Shown here in pieces: positions 8,049 through 57,126 of a stretch of DNA of 64,000 nt. The position numbers and the translations under genes were made by a program. Position 1 is the first letter of the stretch. Each line of letters begins with the position of its first letter. The stretch is from Candidatus Nomurabacteria bacterium. Lineage in GTDB: Bacteria > Patescibacteriota > Minisyncoccia > Phycocordibacterales > UBA918. The notes under the pieces were generated by a model. That model saw only the letters and a list, made by a program, of their open reading frames with translations. It searched no databases and was not told the DNA's origin. The DNA is taken from NCBI GenBank assembly GCA_020631995.1, contig JACKGJ010000001.1, positions 97,753-161,752 on the forward strand. The letters run 5' to 3'.

Positions 8049-8438
8049 TTACCACGGAATAAGATTACGCCAAAAACCTTGATCCTCCACCTCTGTATCT
8101 TGCTCTATACGAGCAGTTGGAGTAGGGGTGGCAGTATCACCCATTATCACAACAACCTGCTCCCCTTCCTTCGAAACATCAAAGTGGCGTCTGATTTCTG
8201 TCTCTAAACCTTGTTCATTACTTAGGTAATCTACTCTTTCCTCCAATTCCACTCTATGAGCCTTTAGTTGTTCTAATTCCTTCTCAGCGTTGTGTCGTCT
8301 ATCTCTCACATCCTGCTCAACTACGTATCTATCATAGACAGCAAAAGAGAGTGTAAACGAAGCAATAAAAAGTACTACGATAGTTAATCGTGAACTTATA
8401 ATGCTTTGCCACCAACTTTTTTTACTGAGTAAACCCAT
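8049..8438 (-). CDS. FtsB/DivIC-family septum formation initiator
   Basis: 129 aa; one N-terminal TM helix then a coiled coil (KELEQLKAHRVELEERVDYLSNEQGLETEIRRHF). Confidence 0.65.
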   Translation of the reverse strand: MGLLSKKSWWQSIISSRLTIVVLFIASFTLSFAVYDRYVVEQDVRDRRHNAEKELEQLKAHRVELEERVDYLSNEQGLETEIRRHFDVSKEGEQVVVIMGDTATPTPTARIEQDTEVEDQGFWRNLIPW

Positions 8439-8440
8439 AT

Positions 8441-8608
8441 GCTAGAATACTACCATCGTCAGTTAACGCTTGGATAAAAGCAGATTTTGAAATTTCGAGC
8501 GCAAAACAAGCTGGAATCCAAACTTTATCTAGATAAGGCTTGGATGAAGCGAAGTTTTGCAGCCGAAATTTCGAAATGTGTGTCCAATGGCTAATTGACG
8601 ATGGTATC
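8441..8608 (-). ncRNA. hairpin-rich leader/sRNA element, copy 1 (paralog of 32539-32750); a small ORF is the alternative
   Basis: About 165 nt folding into one long irregular hairpin (outer stem TACCATCGTCA/TGACGATGGTA, inner GAAATTTCG/CGAAATTTC, apical CTTATC-TA-GATAAG). Shares conserved blocks with the gatC-upstream copy. Starts just after an extended -10. Confidence 0.4.
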
Positions 8609-8610
8609 AC

Positions 8611-8616
8611 ATTGTA
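8611..8616 (-). promoter_or_regulatory. extended -10 box (TGtTACAAT) driving leader element copy 1 and the ftsB operon
   Basis: Minus-strand read AAAATGTTACAATGTGATACCATCG. Confidence 0.4.
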
Positions 8617-8638
8617 ACATTTTGAGTCAGTCCGATAT

Positions 8639-8755
8639 ATGAGTTTTCTATATAATCAAAAAACCAAAAAGGCTATAAAGTGGGTATGGATTGTGATTGC
8701 GACTTTGATTGCGATTAGTATGGTGTTTGCCTATTCTGGCGGCCTAGGAATCTAA
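8639..8755 (+). CDS. possible small hydrophobic peptide (38 aa)
   Basis: Own translation MSFLYNQKTKKAIKWVWIVIATLIAISMVFAYSGGLGI; below the track cutoff; no SD seen. Confidence 0.3.
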   Translation: MSFLYNQKTKKAIKWVWIVIATLIAISMVFAYSGGLGI

Positions 8756-8762
8756 AAAAGTT

Positions 8763-8868
8763 AAAACGGGAGAATTTGCATTCGCTTCAGCCAAATCCCT
8801 CCTGCACTATAGTTTTCTATGTTTTAGTCGTGACTTGTCCTCCAGCGAAAGCAACTTCATCCCGTTTT
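8763..8868 (-). repeat. rod-like palindromic element, family 2 (ATGAAGTTG...CTGAAGCGAA...CAAATTC core)
   Basis: Outer stem AAAACGGG/CCCGTTTT encloses a core whose reverse complement aligns with the elements at 39909-40021 and 46887-47065. Confidence 0.55.
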
Positions 8869-8927
8869 ATTCTTTTTAGAAAATATTTATCGAAATTAGC
8901 ACCACTGCCTCGGTTTTTGGCGTAATC

Positions 8928-10709
8928 TTATTCCTCTTTAATCATTTTCATGAATACTTCTTGAGGTATATGTACTCGGCCACGTTCCAACATCTTCTTC
9001 TTACCCTTCTTTTGCTTATCAAGAAGCTTATTCTTACGTGATACGTCACCACCATAAAGCTTTGCGGTAACATCCTTTCGCATCGCCGAAAGGGTCTTAG
9101 AGGCAATAAAGCGTCCCAGAGCCTTTGTTTGAATTTTTGTAACAAATTGTTGCTTAGGAAGAGTGTTATATAGTTTATCTACTAATACTCTGGCATCGGC
9201 TTCAATTCTCCTAGTGCCAACCACTCGTGAGAAAGCTGGAACAATCTCCTCAGCTACGAATACATCAAGTCGAGCCACATCTGCGGGACGCATCTCGGCA
9301 ATTTCGTAAGAAAGTGAAGCGTAACCACTGGAGGTATTCTTTAACTTATCAAAGAAACCACGCATCAATTCACGAAGAGGCATTTCGATAGTGAGGAGAG
9401 TGCGGCCATCACCGAAGATTTCTGTGTCAATAAGACTAGACTCATGGTCGTAGAGAAGGTTCATTATGTTTCCGATATAGTCAGAAGGGGTAATGATTTG
9501 TCCCAATATCCAAGGTTCACGTACCGTAACACTAGCTCCAAAGTCAGGGAAGCGTGATGCTGCATATATACTCTCTATCCTTCCGTCGTTATAAGTAATT
9601 TCATAAGCAATGGATGGTGAGGTAATAATGATTTCAATATTAAATTCGCGACGCAGTCGCTCGGTCACAATCTCTAAGTGAAGCATACCTAAGAAACCAC
9701 AACGAAAACCTCGTCCCAACACTCCAGACGATTCTTCTTCGTATGATAGTGATGAATCAGACAGACGTAGTCTATCTAGTGCTTGGCGCAAAATAGTGAA
9801 GTCATCTTGGCTGTCTGGGAAAATACTGGCCCAAACAACCGGTTGTACTTCCTTGTAACCTGGCAGTTCCTCTGCCGGACTTTTTTCATTTATAATCGTG
9901 TCGCCCACGTTTGCTATACCAGCCTCTTTAATACCAGTCACAATGTAGCCAATTTCACCAGACTCTAAAGTAGCAGTCGGTATCTCTTGTGGAGAAAGGA
10001 TTCCAACCTCTAACGCTGGGAAGCTTCGCTTCCCAGCCAAAAATCGTAACGTATCTCCTTTCTTAAAACTTCCATCGAACACTCTTAAATAAATAATTAT
10101 TCCGCGATGATTTGAGTATTGAAAGTCAAAAACCAACCCACGTGGCTTTTCGTTCACCGACGACAGAGGTGGTGGTATACGGTCACAGATTAAATCAAGC
10201 AACTCTCGCACTCCCTCCCCCGTCTTACCGGACACTTTCACTATTTCACTCTCGTCACAGTCAATTAACTTTCGTAGCTCTTCTCCCACCTCCTTTATTC
10301 TGGAGTGTGGCGCATCAATTTTGGTGAGAACCGGAATAATCACCAGGCCAAGATCTTTGGCCATCTGGAGAGTACTTAGTGTCTGTGCCTGCACACCCTG
10401 AGTAGAATCCACAAGCAGTAGCACGCCCTCAATCGCACGTAATGCTCTTGAGACCTCATAGGAGAAGTCAATGTGACCTGGTGTATCAATAAGGTTTAGG
10501 ATGTAGTCTTTGCCACCAAATTTGTGCTTCATACGGACCGGCTGCATTTTGATAGTGATGCCCCGTTCCCGCTCCAAATCCATCGAGTCGAGCACCTGAT
10601 CCTTCATTTTGCGAGCTTCCACAGTAGAAGTAACCTCAAGCATACGATCAGCTAGAGTCGACTTTCCGTGGTCGATATGCGCGATAATCCCAAAGTTTCT
10701 AATCTCCAT
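8928..10709 (-). CDS. lepA: elongation factor 4 (LepA)
   Basis: 593 aa; IIAHIDHGKSTLADRMLE G1 motif, DTPGHIDF, LepA-type C-terminus. Confidence 0.95.
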   Translation of the reverse strand: MEIRNFGIIAHIDHGKSTLADRMLEVTSTVEARKMKDQVLDSMDLERERGITIKMQPVRMKHKFGGKDYILNLIDTPGHIDFSYEVSRALRAIEGVLLLVDSTQGVQAQTLSTLQMAKDLGLVIIPVLTKIDAPHSRIKEVGEELRKLIDCDESEIVKVSGKTGEGVRELLDLICDRIPPPLSSVNEKPRGLVFDFQYSNHRGIIIYLRVFDGSFKKGDTLRFLAGKRSFPALEVGILSPQEIPTATLESGEIGYIVTGIKEAGIANVGDTIINEKSPAEELPGYKEVQPVVWASIFPDSQDDFTILRQALDRLRLSDSSLSYEEESSGVLGRGFRCGFLGMLHLEIVTERLRREFNIEIIITSPSIAYEITYNDGRIESIYAASRFPDFGASVTVREPWILGQIITPSDYIGNIMNLLYDHESSLIDTEIFGDGRTLLTIEMPLRELMRGFFDKLKNTSSGYASLSYEIAEMRPADVARLDVFVAEEIVPAFSRVVGTRRIEADARVLVDKLYNTLPKQQFVTKIQTKALGRFIASKTLSAMRKDVTAKLYGGDVSRKNKLLDKQKKGKKKMLERGRVHIPQEVFMKMIKEE

Positions 10710-16128: not shown

Positions 16129-16342
16129 TGGTGTGAGAAAGCTTACAGTGCTTTCGCAAGACCTTTTGAGATATTTTGTAATTCCGAGCTTGTCGAGGAA
16201 GAAACAAAATATACAAAAGGTGTACCGCATCCGTAGGATGAGGAAGCCTGGGAGGCTTTCGCAAGACCTTGCCTGACAATTTATGAGGCGTATAAGCCTC
16301 TATCAATAAATGTCGATAAGGTGTACAGCGACTGTAAGTCGC
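16129..16342 (-). repeat. two tandem copies of the family 1 hairpin core (not tRNA-linked)
   Basis: Minus-strand reads CATCC-TAC-GGATG-C-GGTACACC + long hairpin ACCTTTTGTATATTTTGT/ACAAAATATCTCAAAAGGT + GGTCTTGCGAAAGC..., and GCGAC-TTACA-GTCGC-T-GTACACC + ACCTTATCGACATTTAT/ATAAATTGTCAGGCAAGGT + GGTCTTGCGAAAGC... Confidence 0.65.
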
Positions 16343-28830: not shown

Positions 28831-29076
28831 AAAAGCAAAACTGTTTGCTTTTCACCGCTTGGCTACGGCATCGCTCCGGTCTTCAAGTCCCTATACCAGC
28901 AAAGCAGTTGTTTGTGAGGGGACTTGAAACTTACAGTTTCAGTACACCTTTTCGATATTCCCCTTCACAAGTTCTGGGAATATCTGAAAAGGTCTTCAAG
29001 TCCCACAAGACAGTTCCCCGAACTGTCTTTTTCGCTCACACAAAATAAAAGCCCCCATTAGGGGGCTTTTATTTTG
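28831..29076 (+). repeat. tRNA-Asp-linked composite element (family 1 core plus copies of the tRNA-Asp T-arm/acceptor 3' half)
   Basis: GAAACT-TAC-AGTTTC hairpin, GTACACC, long hairpin ACCTTTTCGATATTCCCC/GGGAATATCTGAAAAGGT. Then TTCAAGTCCC, a 26-nt hairpin and TTCGCTCACACAAAATA, which together are the reverse complement of tRNA-Asp nt ~29071-29096. Extra GGGACTTGAA/TTCAAGTCCC copies at 28882-28926. Confidence 0.7.
29044..29076. terminator. bidirectional terminator next to the tRNA-Asp 3' end
   Basis: AAATAAAAGCCCCCATTAGGGGGCTTTTATTTTG. Confidence 0.75.
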
Positions 29077-29221: not shown

Positions 29222-29384
29222 AATTTGTGTCGACGGGAGGGATGAAGCTTACAGCTTCCGTACACCTTTTCGATATTTCCTTTCATTACTTCAGGAAATA
29301 TCTGAAAAGGTCATCATTCTCTCCCGCGCACAAAATCACTCTTGCGCAAAGCTCCATGCATTCGCTTTACGCTCGGTGTTTTTG
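29222..29384 (+). repeat. tRNA-Met-linked composite element (family 1 core plus direct and inverted copies of the tRNA 3' half)
   Basis: 19-nt exact direct repeat TTTGTGTCGACGGGAGGGA at 29224-29242 and 29381-29399 (the latter inside the tRNA). GAAGCT-TAC-AGCTTC hairpin, GTACACC, 17-bp hairpin, then inverted copy TCATCATTCTCTCCCGCGCACAAAAT at 29311-29336. Confidence 0.7.
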
Positions 29385-29458
29385 TGTCGACGGGAGGGAA
29401 TGATCCTCCGACCTCGGCTTTATGAGTGCCGCGCTCTAACCAACTGAGCTACGTCGAC
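29385..29458 (-). tRNA. tRNA-Met or tRNA-Ile2 (anticodon CAT), elongator type
   Basis: Acceptor GTCGACG/CGTCGAC, D stem GCTC/GAGC (Y11:R24), anticodon loop CTCATAA, T arm GGAGG-ATCATTC-CCTCC (unusual A54/T58). Confidence 0.8.
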
Positions 29459-29540: not shown

Positions 29541-29872
29541 TTGCGGGGCCTGGAATTGAACCAGGGTCTGGAGGTTCTGTTATTCGCTCACTTTCATGAG
29601 TGCATGGACTATCCCATATTCCTGGATTAAAATATCCTTAGGAACTCTCCATTATAGTCTCTGAACCTTCCGTCTGCTTTCGCAGAGGGCTTGGCTGCCG
29701 ATTGCCGAATCTTTACTTTTTTAAAGCATTCACACTCACCCTCTCAGGTCATGTTGTAGCAAGCAAAGCTCTAACGGTATTCCAGCAATTTAGAAGATTT
29801 TTCCATACCGCATTACTGCGATAGGTCACAGTTTCCTATGAGCCTCCCGAGGTACCACTCCTCTACCCCGCT
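29541..29872 (-). tRNA. tRNA(CAT) with initiator-like features, interrupted by a group I intron (exons 29872-29838 and 29576-29541)
   Basis: Spliced sequence gives AGCGGGG-TA-GAGG-AGTGGTA-CCTC-G-GGAGG-CTCATAA-CCTCC-AGAC-CCTGG-TTCAATT-CCAGG-CCCCGCA-A. Features: 1:72 mismatch (A:A) and A11:T24. Confidence 0.8.
29577..29837 (-). ncRNA. group I self-splicing intron (261 nt, no ORF) in the anticodon loop after CAU
   Basis: 5' exon ends in U and the intron ends in G. P1 UCAU/GUGA; P2 hairpin AUCGCA-GUAA-UGCGGU. Classical P/Q/R/S elements: AAAUUGCUGGAAU, AAUCGGCAGCC, GGUUCAGAGACUAUAAUGG, GGGAUAGUCC. Confidence 0.8.
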
Positions 29873-32244: not shown

Positions 32245-32538
32245 TTATGAGTCGGGATTAAGAATCTTTTTGACTTTGAGATAATCACCGATTTTTTCAG
32301 GAAATGCTGATACTAAAGCATCTGTGTCCTCTTTTGATTTCTCCACCACCACATCCTCACGCATCACATTCTTAACAACACCAGGAGTCTTTTTTAATTC
32401 CAAGTCAGAAACAATCCGGTTAACCGCACCAACATAATCCAAAATAGATTCTATTTCGGTCTGAAATTTAGTTACCTCCTCATCGCTCATCTTTACTCGA
32501 GAGAGGTTGCCAAGTTGTAGTATCTCTTCCTTAGTCAT
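32245..32538 (-). CDS. gatC: Asp/Glu-tRNA(Asn/Gln) amidotransferase subunit C
   Basis: 97 aa; typical GatC size and position (LSRVKMSDEEVTKFQTEIESILDYV). Confidence 0.85.
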   Translation of the reverse strand: MTKEEILQLGNLSRVKMSDEEVTKFQTEIESILDYVGAVNRIVSDLELKKTPGVVKNVMREDVVVEKSKEDTDALVSAFPEKIGDYLKVKKILNPDS

Positions 32539-32750
32539 CTGTTAGAAATTATTGCTTACTTATATGAGCCCGCTCCAGCGAGAAAGATATACCATTTCCA
32601 GTTAACGCTCCTACATTAAAACCTTTCATAATTTCGAGCGAAAGACGAGCTGGAGTCCGAGCTTTATCTAAATAAGGCGAGGACGAAGCGAAGTTTTGTA
32701 GCCGAAATTCTGCAAGGTTTATGGGGTGTTTAACTGAGGATGGTATAGGT
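32539..32750 (-). ncRNA. hairpin-rich leader/sRNA element, copy 2 (paralog of 8441-8608)
   Basis: Conserved blocks ATACCATC, GAATTTCGGCTnCAAAACTTCGCTTC, CCTTATnTAGATAAAG, TCCAGCT, CGCTCGAAATT, AGCGTTAACTG, ATGGTA shared with copy 1. Outer stems ATACCAT/ATGGTAT and CAGTTAA/TTAACTG. Confidence 0.4.
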
Positions 32751-32754
32751 GGCA

Positions 32755-32760
32755 TCATAG
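32755..32760 (-). promoter_or_regulatory. extended -10 box (TGcTATGAT) for leader element copy 2 and gatCA
   Basis: Minus-strand read GCGCTGATGCTATGATGCCACCTATACCAT; lies at the 3' end of ligA. Confidence 0.4.
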
Positions 32761-32762
32761 CA

Positions 32763-34778
<2,016 letters not shown>

Positions 34779-34861: not shown

Positions 34862-35093
34862 CATCTAAAATTGGAGGCAGTTGTGCACCACAAGAGTACT
34901 TCCATTTTTATACTCCTTCCAGTCGTTAAAAATTTGGTCGTCGGTTGGAGGGATTTTTACGAGAGAGACGTATATAGATATACGGTGACTAAGACAACTT
35001 TCTGAAGCAAACGCATCACGGGCATTTCGTTTTTATAGTCGCACTGCGGCGCTCCTTAAAAACTAGTCACAATTCGCCCATTTGGGGGATTTA
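34862..35093 (+). repeat. family 2 rod-like element with extra module (shares a 46-nt identical block with 46914-46959)
   Basis: 34886-34931 is identical to 46914-46959 (CACCACAAGAGTACTTCCATTTTTATACTCCTTCCAGTCGTTAAAA). Contains CGTATATAGATATACG hairpin, CTGAAGC motif and CAATTCG end. Confidence 0.6.
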
Positions 35094-46744: not shown

Positions 46745-46886
46745 CGCCTACTCTGCAAATCGCTTTTATACTCTCTGTGGACAAGGTTTATAAACACTGG
46801 ACGTTCAGTCACTGCAACTTCACCTACCCCTGCGACCATACAGACAACTTTTGTAAAATTAAAATGAGGATGTGACATTATCTAAT

Positions 46887-47065
46887 AAATCCTCCAAATG
46901 AGATGAAGTTGTTCACCACAAGAGTACTTCCATTTTTATACTCCTTCCAGTCGTTAAAACTTTGGTCGTTTGCTGGAGGGAGGACTACGCGGAAGACGTA
47001 GAAAGAACTACGGCGACCAAGTAGTCCGACTGAAGCGAAGACAAATTCGCTCATTTGGAGGATTT
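46887..47065 (+). repeat. family 2 rod-like element (long copy) between pilM and pilN
   Basis: Perfect 16-nt arms AAATCCTCCAAATGAG / CTCATTTGGAGGATTT. ATGAAGTTG...GACCAAG...GACTGAAGCGAAGACAAATTCG core. 46-nt block identical to 34886-34931. Overlaps the pilM stop by 2 nt. Confidence 0.65.
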
Positions 47066-48161
47066 ATTGGAACTTGCGGAGCGCGGCGCCTAACGCCACC
47101 CCAAAAGATGGACCAATCTCCTTAAGGGTATCCTCCATAAATGCTGGATAAGCAACCTTGGCAAAGGGATGAGATAACTCTACAGGCCGAGCAAAGCGGT
47201 CTTTAATATATTCCAAAGCGTACGGAGACGCAGAAACGCCACCCGTAATAACGATACGACCAATCTGCTCATTCAAACGAGCTTCGTACTGTCCAATCAA
47301 TCTACCGAATTCAGAAAGTGAAGTTTCAAGAACTGAAGTCATACACTGATGTATGACCGGACCTTGTTCAACATTTCGATCAAAAGAACGTTTCTGATTT
47401 TCTGCGTCTTCAAAATTTATATTTAAACGCTCTGCAACCAATCGTGTTATTTCACGACCACCTTGACCAACACGATGCAGTCGTTCCAGCATACCACCAC
47501 GCACAATGTACAACTTAGAACTCTTCGCACCAATATCAATAACAGCGAGTGTTGTATCCTTCTGTCTCCACAGAGCCCGAATCAAACTAAACGCTTCTAT
47601 TTCCGCCGCTTCTCCTGTCATACCGATTGAAGAAAATAGTTCTCGGTGTTCTGCTAGGGCTTTATTTTCTATAGCAGCGATGAGTACTTCTTTAAAATTA
47701 CTTTTGTTCTCACCCACTGACGGCAGTTCAGACCAATCAAGCGTAACGTCTGTTAGAGGTAGCGGTACATACTTCCGTGCCTCTACTGGAATACGTGTAG
47801 TGATATCTTCTTGTGGACCGATAGCAACTGGAATGACGGTTAAAAAGCTGGAATAGAGAGACATAGCTAAAGCACCGCTGTGTCCCGTGACTCCAGATTC
47901 ACGGATGACGTCTGTCACAGCTTCTACTTTTTTATCTTTCGGCAAATTCACTATCTCGCCTAAAGGTTTAGCATCATAAGGACCGAGCTGTAACTCACCA
48001 TAAGTGCGCAACATTACAGTACGTGGCGTCTCTTCTATCTCCACAACCTTTATAGAAGCGCTACCAATATCAATACCTACAGTAGTTGGACCAGCGTCTT
48101 TCGCCACCTTTTTCACTCCCCCAAAGATTTTTTTAAAAGAAAAGACCATACTTTGTAACAA
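47064..48161 (-). CDS. pilM: type IV pilus assembly protein PilM (actin-like ATPase fold)
   Basis: 365 aa; VGIDIGSASIKVVEIEE phosphate-1 motif, VIDIGAKSSKLYIV, ITGGVS. Confidence 0.85.
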   Translation of the reverse strand: MLQSMVFSFKKIFGGVKKVAKDAGPTTVGIDIGSASIKVVEIEETPRTVMLRTYGELQLGPYDAKPLGEIVNLPKDKKVEAVTDVIRESGVTGHSGALAMSLYSSFLTVIPVAIGPQEDITTRIPVEARKYVPLPLTDVTLDWSELPSVGENKSNFKEVLIAAIENKALAEHRELFSSIGMTGEAAEIEAFSLIRALWRQKDTTLAVIDIGAKSSKLYIVRGGMLERLHRVGQGGREITRLVAERLNINFEDAENQKRSFDRNVEQGPVIHQCMTSVLETSLSEFGRLIGQYEARLNEQIGRIVITGGVSASPYALEYIKDRFARPVELSHPFAKVAYPAFMEDTLKEIGPSFGVALGAALRKFQ

Positions 48162-50216: not shown

Positions 50217-50471
50217 ATGCCAAAAGCTAATTCAGCGTTTATGAAGCCAATGAACATCAGTCCAGAGTTGGCTGAGGTAGTTGGAAAAGGTCCAATGCCA
50301 CGTTCAGAGGTAGTAAAGGCCATCTGGGTCTACATCAAGAAGCACGATTTACAAAATCCTCAGAATAAACGAAATATCCTCGCTGACGACAAACTAAAGC
50401 CTGTCTTTGGTGGGAAGGACGAGGTAACAATGTTTGAGATGACTAAACTCGTCTCAGCACACCTCTCGTAA
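50217..50471 (+). CDS. SWIB/MDM2 domain protein
   Basis: 84 aa; ISPELAEVVGKGPMPRSEVVKAIWVYIKKHDLQNPQNKRNILADDKLKPVFG matches the SWIB consensus. Confidence 0.8.
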   Translation: MPKANSAFMKPMNISPELAEVVGKGPMPRSEVVKAIWVYIKKHDLQNPQNKRNILADDKLKPVFGGKDEVTMFEMTKLVSAHLS

Positions 50472-50610
50472 TTTATTCCAAAGTTGGCGCAGGGCTTGTT
50501 GTTCCTTCGCTAAAAACCTTGCTGGAGTTTTTCTCCCACTCGGTTTCTAGCTTCAGTCCACAACTTCGCCTTGCATCCAATTTTGAAACAAATTGTAATT
50601 TGAGACAAAG

Positions 50611-51109: not shown

Positions 51110-51346
51110 TCTAGAATATTACATCCTCCTTGATTCACTGCGTTCATCTGCGGAGGATGTGAGATTCGGTCACTCTTATGGATATTTTGTATTACTTCGC
51201 TCACAAAATATCTCATTCGCTCAACCCCACCTCACTCGCCTCCGGCATCGTTCCGGTTTTCGAATCTCACCGCGAGACACGCAGGTGTCTCGCTCATCCT
51301 CCGCGAATACAAAAAAGTCGCCAAATGGCGCGCTAATTTGTATTCG
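51110..51346 (+). repeat. tRNA-Ser(ACU)-linked composite element
   Basis: 19-nt exact direct repeat GCGGAGGATGTGAGATTCG (51150-51168 vs 51346-51364 in the tRNA). Hairpin GGATATTTTGT/ACAAAATATC. GGCATCGTTCCGGTTTT module. Inverted copy CGAATCTCAC, 25-nt hairpin, ATCCTCCGCGAATACAAA (18-bp perfect with 51337-51354). Confidence 0.7.
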
Positions 51347-51433
51347 CGGAGGATGTGAGATTCGAACTCACGGGCGGTTTTACCCGCCGGCGGTTTAGTA
51401 AACCGCTGGTTTAAACCACTCACCCAATCCTCC
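51347..51433 (-). tRNA. type II tRNA, Ser-like, anticodon reads ACT (unusual)
   Basis: Acceptor GGAGGAT/ATCCTCC, discriminator G, anticodon stem GCGGT/ACCGC with loop TTACTAA, long variable arm GGCGG-GTAAAA-CCGCC, T arm GTGAG-TTCGAAT-CTCAC. Confidence 0.7.
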
Positions 51434-51493: not shown

Positions 51494-51677
51494 ATGGAAA
51501 TTTATTTACATTTCCGAACGAACGCTGAAAGAAAGCTTGCTTACAGAGCAGTACACCTTTTGGATATTTTATTTCACTTTGCTCATAAACTATCTCAAAA
51601 GGTCTTCGAATCCCTCCTTTTCTCGCAGAATATAATCACAAAAAGCTCCGAGCATTCGCTTTTTGTTCTTTATTCTG
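51494..51677 (+). repeat. tRNA-Ser(GCU)-linked composite element
   Basis: GTACACC plus hairpin ACCTTTTGGATATTTTAT/ATAAACTATCTCAAAAGGT. Then TTCGAATCCCTCCTTTTC(t)CGCAGAATA at 51605-51632, a near-perfect reverse complement of tRNA nt 51671-51697. Loop motif AAGCTCCGAGCATTCGCTTT shared with the Met locus. Confidence 0.7.
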
Positions 51678-57024: not shown

Positions 57025-57052
57025 TAACCCTGCGTGGCGTTTAAAAACTCTG

Positions 57053-57126
57053 TCCGCCCTCTTGGATTTGAACCAAGGACCCCAGAGGTATAAGCTCTGT
57101 GCTCTAACCAACTGAGCTAAGGGCGG
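57053..57126 (-). tRNA. tRNA-Ile (anticodon TAT)
   Basis: Acceptor CCGCCCT/AGGGCGG (C1:G72), D arm GCTC-AGTTGGTTA-GAGC, anticodon stem CAGAG/CTCTG with loop CTTATAC, T arm CTTGG-TTCAAAT-CCAAG. Confidence 0.8.

Follow-up and report, generated by a model that had tools for sequence, protein, structure and literature searches.

The spacer upstream of ftsB in a 64,000-nucleotide (nt) stretch of contig JACKGJ010000001.1 from a Candidatus Nomurabacteria bacterium (hereafter, the window) holds a long palindromic hairpin, and a second copy of it lies upstream of gatC. We conclude, with a probability of roughly 80%, that both copies are a palindromic, non-autonomous element resembling MITEs (miniature transposable elements with inverted repeats), and not a dedicated leader, a 6S RNA or a micro-protein gene. 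It is a MITE-like transposable element of Patescibacteria whose family is new and whose kind is known. The element falls within the definition of a MITE (PMC10969869), because it is shorter than 500 base pairs (bp), carries no transposase gene and has no coding capacity, ends in terminal inverted repeats, is flanked by a direct 3-bp TWA target-site duplication, is polymorphic in its presence at orthologous sites, and has been amplified to several similar copies per genome. An earlier reading made from the letters alone (the sequence-only reading) had described the hairpins accurately and had proposed three identities, namely a new leader, a 6S-like RNA and a micro-protein. All three fail, and a mobile element was not on its list.

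Hairpin copies, insertion sites and family

Copy 1 occupies positions 8451-8606 of the plus strand, and copy 2 occupies 32590-32745 of the plus strand, between the stop codon of ligA and gatC. Both are 156 nt long. The unit at ftsB had been drawn at 8441-8608; the location was right, and the exact unit is slightly smaller. Copy 1 has class A ends (TACCATC...GATGGTA). Its outer stem of 11 bp is formed by TACCATCGTCA and TGACGATGGTA at 8451-8461 and 8596-8606, followed by a GAAATTTCG/CGAAATTTC stem and an apical CTTATC-TA-GATAAG, so that the whole is a near-perfect palindrome. The predicted RNA fold of copy 1 reached -76.1 kcal/mol on the plus strand (z = -11.1) and -61.6 kcal/mol on the minus strand, which is the ftsB sense (z = -8.3), and none of 200 shuffles was as stable in either case. 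Each copy forms one long hairpin, with fold z-scores of -8 to -11. The stems listed by the sequence-only reading were recovered. Its assumption that the ftsB-sense strand is the structured one did not hold, since the plus strand folds better in both copies and, over the family, in 21 of 21 loci.

The gatC-upstream copy announced by that reading exists. It is 74% identical to copy 1 in a gap-free alignment and is oriented alike. Five pairs differ on both sides between the copies with pairing retained, and one entire stem segment is swapped for another complementary pair of sequences.

To read the insertion sites, FtsB orthologues were located and the region of lepA, a 38-amino-acid (aa) open reading frame (ORF) and ftsB was compared across relatives. 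The ftsB locus is filled in the window and in relative L001 (FtsB about 90% identical). It is empty in five relatives: L056 (FtsB 83% identical), L046 (74%), L048 (68%), L049 (63%) and L050 (55%). The gatC locus is empty in four, L052 to L055, with GatC 94-75% identical. A scan of every empty-site locus with model R1 found no copy. The empty-site relatives keep the same promoters and genes as the window.

The empty ftsB sites read TGTTACAATG-CTA-TTCTAGCATATG in L046, CAATA-TTA-TCTTAGC in L049 and TGTTATAATC-CTA-TTCTAAC in L056. The filled sites read TGTTACAATG-TGA-[156 nt]-GTA-TTCTAGCATATG in the window and ...TAA-[156 nt]-TTA... in L001. At gatC, L052 and L053 read GATGCCAC-TAA-CTTGCC/CTGGCC, and the window reads GATGCCAC-CTA-[156 nt]-TAT-CTTTC. 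Each empty site contains exactly one TWA/CTA triplet, and each filled site consists of triplet, element and triplet. The flanks align exactly when the single empty-site triplet is counted once on each side of the element. L001 has the empty-site triplet, TAA, on the left and TTA on the right. These comparisons show that the element is an insertion relative to close relatives, at a T-W-A triplet that is then found on both sides. L052 and L001 came from one Joint Genome Institute (JGI) sample and are probably one organism, with copy 1 and without copy 2.

Homologues were gathered by scanning genome and metagenome collections for an exact core 20-mer, TTTCGGCTNCAAAACTTCGC (minus orientation). The true relatives all belong to Patescibacteria: a Nomurabacteria metagenome-assembled genome (MAG), three Saccharibacteria MAGs, a Parcubacteria-group MAG and 'Patescibacteria group' MAGs. 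The remaining 20-mer matches lacked the rest of the element and are chance matches. FtsB and GatC of the window have best matches of 90-94% identity, some of them named Kaiserbacteria, and its organism is accordingly close to Candidatus Kaiserbacteria; in the NCBI taxonomy, Kaiseribacteriota and Saccharimonadota are separate candidate phyla. By model R1, the window contains two copies. At least seven, with identities of 93-100%, are present in the Nomurabacteria MAG CALQZP01; five of these are at the ends of contigs, where a recently amplified repeat is expected.

Two end classes were distinguished. Class A elements are 155-156 nt long and end in TACCATCnCCAATTAAC...GTTAATTGGnGATGGTA, which are complementary over at least 17 nt. 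Class B elements are 182-184 nt long, carry the inverted repeats GAAACTGTCTC.../...GAGACAGTTTC and have an asymmetric extra segment of about 20 nt. The termini of the two classes are unrelated, and the core is common to both. Direct TTA...TTA flanks were found at 7 of the 12 complete copies elsewhere, in both end classes; all seven read TTA, not TAA, on both sides in the orientation of the folded strand. Partial copies in the Nomurabacteria MAG have both TTA and TAA flanks. The element inserts at a T-W-A triplet with a 3-bp target-site duplication, and a DDE-type transposase whose duplications are 3-bp TWA triplets may mobilize it in trans.

The genes beside the copies are mutually unrelated (ftsB, gatC, VWA, ftsZ, pilM, gdh/PIF1 and a DEAD-box helicase gene). 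In L005 and L002, a start codon of the same orientation follows about 25-60 nt downstream of the element, and in L011 and L021 the element is antisense to its neighbours. Of 11 independent loci, about 8 have the folded strand antisense to the genes nearby, a trend that is not significant. The L005 copy (2545-2700, Patescibacteria MAG JBBUBG01) lies between ftsA and ftsZ. Its frame is open from the element into ftsZ, so that automatic gene calls may add about 60 residues to FtsZ.

Pfam scans of 19 neighbouring proteins detected no DDE or Y1 transposase, and no Y1 or RAYT (REP-associated tyrosine transposase; REP, repetitive extragenic palindrome) gene was seen near any copy among the neighbouring proteins examined. 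A large serine recombinase 1.7 kb from the copy in L027 is probably unrelated to the element. In viral contigs (IMG/VR), two core patterns gave no match and the class A terminus gave 38 single matches; none of these has the element by model R1, and they are regarded as chance. A BLAST search of a young copy against PLSDB plasmids and a phage collection gave no match. The literature searched on MITEs, palindromic repeats and structured RNAs of Patescibacteria, or candidate phyla radiation (CPR) bacteria, holds no description of the element, and Rfam holds no similar one. Thus, the family is previously undescribed and, within the collections searched, is found only in Patescibacteria.

Conserved core, strand bias and rival readings

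In nine class A copies, 58 pairs were predicted, and compensatory changes were found in 28 of them. In 16 cores from both classes, 93.8% of the cells are paired and 21 of 39 pairs covary; none of 500 shuffles equalled this pairing, and slid controls were 32-48% paired. The claim of a conserved hairpin is therefore borne out by real compensatory changes. On the plus strand, the core contains four small G/A internal loops (GA/GYA, GA/GAA, GGA/GA and GA/GA), which are invariant and purine-rich on one strand only. The apical loop is CGAG, CGGG or CUAG, closed by U-A. Near the apex is the largest unpaired stretch, of about 8x8 nt, which some members bridge with a 3-bp helix.

The core of copy 2 (32618-32725, plus strand) is near the family consensus. 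That of copy 1 (8479-8586, plus strand) has the inner stem, the four G/A-rich internal loops and the apical hairpin, and has lost several otherwise invariant positions. For this reason, copy 1 looks like an ageing copy. Between copy 1 and its orthologue in L001, divergence is about equal in the core and the arms.

Several known structures were considered. A GNRA tetraloop at the apex is excluded by the loop sequences. Resemblances to the hammerhead, the K-turn, domain IV of the signal recognition particle (SRP) RNA and the sarcin-ricin loop were seen by eye only and had no model support. The template and variable repeats of a diversity-generating retroelement (DGR) were rejected, because the differences between copies are compensatory and not adenine-specific. 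An integron attC site was also rejected: the ends AATTAAC and GTTAATT lie outside the R''/R' consensus (RYYYAAC / GTTRRRY), the interior is conserved rather than variable, and the cassette context is absent.

Some observations weigh against a MITE-like element pure and simple. Over a core of about 80 nt, mean pairwise identity is about 88% (a value for the 5' half of the core, outside the search pattern), as against 62-66% in the outer arms and 72% at the apex. The core is thus conserved more than the termini, which is the reverse of a typical MITE. The 20-mer seed came from the 3' core, so that conservation there is inflated and divergent members were missed. On the plus strand, 34 G-U cells in 22 columns were counted against 6 A-C cells in 6 columns (p = 0.004 by column), where an A-C cell on the plus strand is a G-U cell on the minus strand. 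Such strand-asymmetric pairing goes beyond the needs of a plain double-stranded DNA cut-and-paste element. The flanks in the window are degenerate, with TAC (8448-8450) and TCA (8607-8609) as the target-site duplication of copy 1, where L001 has TAA and TTA, and with ATA and TAG at copy 2. Finally, no autonomous partner was found: in the collected loci, termini with up to 4 mismatches matched elements only.

The strand bias is consistent over the family. Plus-strand G-U cells equal or exceed A-C cells in every sequence, and the plus strands of the family loci have model R1 scores of 95-123 bits, as against about 30-36 bits for the opposite strands. For copy 1, the two values are 105 bits (plus) and 35.6 bits (minus), and the plus strand of copy 2 reaches 114.7 bits. 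The plus strand of the window is C-rich throughout (negative GC skew). Mutation bias is an unlikely cause of the G-U excess, since leading-strand C-to-T change would favour G-T on the other strand. Given the conserved G/A-loop core and the one-strand G-U excess, selection on the family appears to favour folding of the plus strand by itself, as RNA or single-stranded DNA (ssDNA); here this strand is antisense to ftsB and gatC. As an alternative, the bias may reflect selection against an over-stable hairpin in host mRNAs. This would account for the strand preference and leaves the compensatory changes unexplained; the antisense trend among the loci is not significant.

These features bear most directly on the possibility that the element is primarily a gene for a structured non-coding RNA, with plus polarity (antisense to ftsB and gatC) and a protein-binding or trans-acting core. 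Its mobile features would then be a means of dispersal only. We regard this as possible and clearly short of probable. It would fit the excess of core over arm conservation across Kaiseribacteriota, Nomurabacteria, the Parcubacteria group and Saccharimonadota, the invariant loops with purines on a single strand, the G-U excess or parity in every sequence, the better fold and far higher R1 scores of the plus strand, and a plus-strand promoter-like site aimed into copy 1. However, a conserved internal promoter or terminator was looked for in the element and none was found, neither copy is needed by close relatives, copy 1 is without several otherwise invariant core positions, and the orthologues of the window and L001 diverge about equally fast in core and arms. 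In a related and equally tentative proposal, the core is a functional RNA module of plus polarity carried by at least two transposon 'chassis', the class A and class B termini. It is nearly invariant from Saccharimonadota to the Parcubacteria group and presents four G/A-rich loops on a covarying helix. If this were true, the module would be a mobile RNA gene or a protein-binding decoy and not junk, and the strand bias would reflect selection on the transcript. A mobile element of the ssDNA kind (HUH/Y1 type, REP or derived from insertion sequences (IS) IS200/IS605), which would form its hairpin in ssDNA and insert beside TTA, is unlikely. The strand-specific folding with G-T-tolerant pairing, the seven intact copies with TTA on both sides, and the L001 site, where the left TAA matches the empty-site triplet and the right triplet is TTA, are what it would predict. 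Nevertheless, the right side reads both TTA and TAA among the partial copies of one MAG, so that the right triplet is not borne by the element; the termini are long inverted repeats; and no Y1 or RAYT gene was seen near any copy among the neighbouring proteins examined. In addition, the folded strand in the window is the C-rich one, the leading-strand template, and the rule for IS608 is the opposite.

The remaining rivals were those raised by the sequence-only reading. A dedicated cis-regulatory 5' leader of ftsB and gatC (an attenuator, riboswitch or thermometer) would suit the position of both copies between an extended -10 box and a start codon, oriented as the gene, and the similar placement in L005 and L002. 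We consider it very unlikely, because the orthologous leaders of close relatives (FtsB 55-83% and GatC 75-94% identical) are without the element, the genes downstream are functionally unrelated, the gene-sense strand folds worse, and the elements of L011 and L021 are antisense to their neighbours. Still less probable is a conserved micro-protein of 60-70 aa on the minus strand. The same-strand ORFs that had been noted, of 62 aa and 69 aa, are present and share FRLQNFASS.PYLDK; their peptides are 52% identical, and the frame is open in both copies and in L001, L002, L005, L027 and L038. However, at least 12 of the 21 loci have in-frame stops within the element, among them L011, L013, L016, L020, L021 and all seven Nomurabacteria copies. 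Neither a start codon nor a ribosome-binding site is conserved, and peptide identity is no higher than nucleotide identity. A profile of both ORFs matched only three of 5.8 billion proteins; one is encoded by copy 2, one by the copy 1 orthologue and one by a further copy. The arguments that the sequence-only reading had itself raised against coding were sound. With these stops and no conserved start, FRLQNFASS.PYLDK is best taken as a translation of the conserved nucleotide core, and not as a gene product. The reading as a divergent 6S RNA, or as two such RNAs of the kind present in Bacillus, has the least to recommend it and is scarcely credible. The rod-like shape, the length of about 160 nt, the internal loops and the two copies recall 6S RNA. 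At E<=10, Rfam models gave only chance-level microRNA and small nucleolar RNA matches with both copies and two young copies, and no 6S, T-box or riboswitch; at the gathering threshold, the whole window gave only tRNAs, transfer-messenger RNA (tmRNA) and a group I intron. The largest loop is small, near the apex and partly paired, so that a large central bubble is lacking. Furthermore, one genome has at least seven copies, target duplications flank copies, and close relatives lack the element. Both the peptide similarity and the 6S-like rod shape would be by-products of nucleotide conservation in a palindrome.

Neighbouring genes and other repeats

The ftsB gene (DivIC family, 8049-8438, minus strand) lies downstream of copy 1, with its ATG at 8438, and its extended -10 box TGTTACAAT lies at 8619-8611 of the minus strand (8611-8619); both are as the earlier reading described them. 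In the empty-site relatives, the box is kept as TGTTACAAT or TGTTATAAT. This predicted box is older than the insertion of copy 1. A plus-strand promoter-like sequence, TTTACT-16-TAGAAT with an upstream TG (8421-8448, found by a consensus scan), faces copy 1 and the 38-aa ORF (8639-8755, plus strand). Its -10 box TGCTAGAAT leads to this ORF and is conserved in the empty sites, where TGCTAGAAT and TGTTACAAT face each other on opposite strands, almost touching. Copy 1 lies within the 3 nt that separated them. In the empty state, the ftsB leader is only about 10 nt long and has no Shine-Dalgarno sequence. The gatC gene (32245-32538, minus strand) lies downstream of copy 2. The promoter-like sequence of gatCAB, TTTAAA-16-TATGAT with an upstream TG (32754-32781, minus strand), is 8 nt from the end of copy 2 and is kept in empty-site relatives. 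Copy 2 inserted 5 nt downstream of this -10 box, TGCTATGAT.

Extended -10 boxes lie directly upstream of both copies, which are therefore probably transcribed and form long structured 5' leaders. From the arrangement of the predicted promoters, copy 1 would be transcribed in this way on both strands and copy 2 on the minus strand. The ftsB and gatC mRNAs would carry the weaker-folding sense form, and the mRNA of the 38-aa ORF would carry the stronger plus-strand form. In young copies, the junction in gene sense reads TGGTA|TAA|N, similar to an extended -10 box (TGnTATAAn); its counterpart at copy 1, 8 nt upstream of the ftsB ATG, is TGGTAGTAT. The junction of element and gene could thus supply an outward promoter, which would explain the tolerance of insertions directly behind promoters.

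The product of the 38-aa ORF, which is face-to-face with ftsB, would be a single-pass membrane protein (MSFLYNQKTKKAIKWVWIVIATLIAISMVFAYSGGLGI). The ORF is conserved in six relatives with many synonymous changes; it is probably a genuine gene for a small protein, overlooked in most annotation. A 23-nt perfect inverted repeat, GGAATAAGATTACGCCAAAAACC / GGTTTTTGGCGTAATCTTATTCC, lies at 8056-8078 and 8912-8934 with its arms 833 nt apart, and spans ftsB, copy 1 and the 38-aa ORF. One arm, on the minus strand, codes for the last residues of FtsB (GFWRNLIP); the other starts at the end of lepA, in its last codon and stop codon. The frames of lepA and ftsB would both stay open after an inversion between the arms. 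L001 and L056 lack the arm on the lepA side.

Another hairpin of about 110 nt, unrelated to the family, lies between lepA and the 38-aa ORF (8762-8870, TAAAACGGGA...TCCCGTTTTA; fold z = -5.3 for the plus and -6.9 for the minus strand). Both the window and L001 have it. Its absence from the short spacers of L046, L048 and L050 suggests another palindromic insertion in the intergenic region of copy 1. This hairpin has a CTGAAGCGAA..CAAATTC stretch in common with a MITE-like element of about 190 nt at 46881-47071, which has 22-nt terminal inverted repeats (TCTAATAAATCCTCCAAATGAG / CTCATTTGGAGGATTTATTGGA). A partial copy of the latter, 79% identical, lies 12 kb away at 34868-35011. At 50465-50595 (minus strand), a long hairpin with GCGAAG-type loops folds to -56.6 kcal/mol on the minus strand. 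It matches model R1 weakly (17.4 bits, E about 0.04) and may be a distant relative or an unrelated hairpin.

Other repeats and RNAs lie among the tRNA genes. A repeat unit of about 75 nt (CAGTACACCTTTTCGATATT...TATCTGAAAAGGTC) occurs beside tRNA genes at 28925-28998, 29243-29316 and 51549-51614, and inverted at 16201-16235. It may be a tRNA promoter, leader or processing hairpin held in common. A group I intron (RF00028, 61 bits) lies in a tRNA gene cluster at 29585-29849 (minus strand), beside tRNA-Met (29384-29458). Group I introns inside tRNA genes of Patescibacteria are reported to conceal the tRNA from standard tools (2026, PMC13011429). ARAGORN gave unusual anticodons at 51346-51433 and 57052-57126; a tRNA-Ser(ACT) adjoins a tRNA-Ser(GCT), and there is also a tRNA-Ile(TAT).

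Comparison with known systems

The assignment removes a tempting false lead, that of a new ftsB riboregulator, 6S RNA or micro-protein, and illustrates that conserved hairpins in tiny CPR genomes can be mobile DNA. A new MITE-like family is defined, for which exact boundaries, the target site and a covariance model are given. Copy 1 separated two overlapping promoters that face each other, and it would have given the ftsB mRNA, near-leaderless before, a leader of about 170 nt. It is therefore a natural experiment on the tolerance of promoters and leaders, in a genome seemingly without Shine-Dalgarno use at these genes. For specialists, the interest lies in an interior better conserved than the termini, two end classes, a distribution across candidate phyla, and folding of one strand only.

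Tourist-like MITEs, PIF-Harbinger elements and the IS5 family make 3-bp TTA/TAA (TWA) duplications, and Tourist elements are small with inverted termini. The TWA duplication, the small size and the inverted termini of our element recall these elements. No IS5-like transposase or matching termini were seen in the sequence examined, and the class A termini (TACCATC...) are not known to resemble the ends of the IS5 family. With 6S RNA (Rfam RF00013 and relatives), the element has in common an elongated irregular hairpin of about 160-190 nt. Unlike 6S RNA, it has no model match and no large central bubble, and it is multi-copy, mobile and missing in close relatives.

Rickettsia palindromic elements (RPEs) are selfish palindromic repeats of about 100-150 bp in the reduced genomes of host-dependent bacteria; their ORF is open in many copies, and in-frame fusion to host genes is possible (PMC10969869). 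The frame that is open through the L005 element into ftsZ recalls this behaviour. In contrast to RPEs, the Patescibacteria copies are intergenic or in leaders and not within coding regions, their ORF is often broken, and the 3-bp duplication and the termini are defined.

Prokaryotic MITEs are small, with inverted termini, short target duplications and no transposase gene, and they often lie within promoters or leaders and can alter expression (PMC10969869). Compared with Correia/NEMIS of Neisseria, ERIC, RUP and QMITE of Coxiella (PMC10969869), the Patescibacteria element is alike in its size below 500 bp, its inverted termini, the short direct duplications in young copies, the lack of a transposase gene and the presence of multiple copies. 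AT-rich intergenic targets and stable stem-loop transcripts, which are probable here, are also common to both. The element has no sequence similarity to entries of Rfam, PLSDB plasmids or the phage collection, and no cognate IS was identified in the collected loci. Unlike these MITEs, the whole Patescibacteria element is one hairpin, which folds with a clear one-strand bias and in which two end classes are joined to a single core that is better conserved than the termini.

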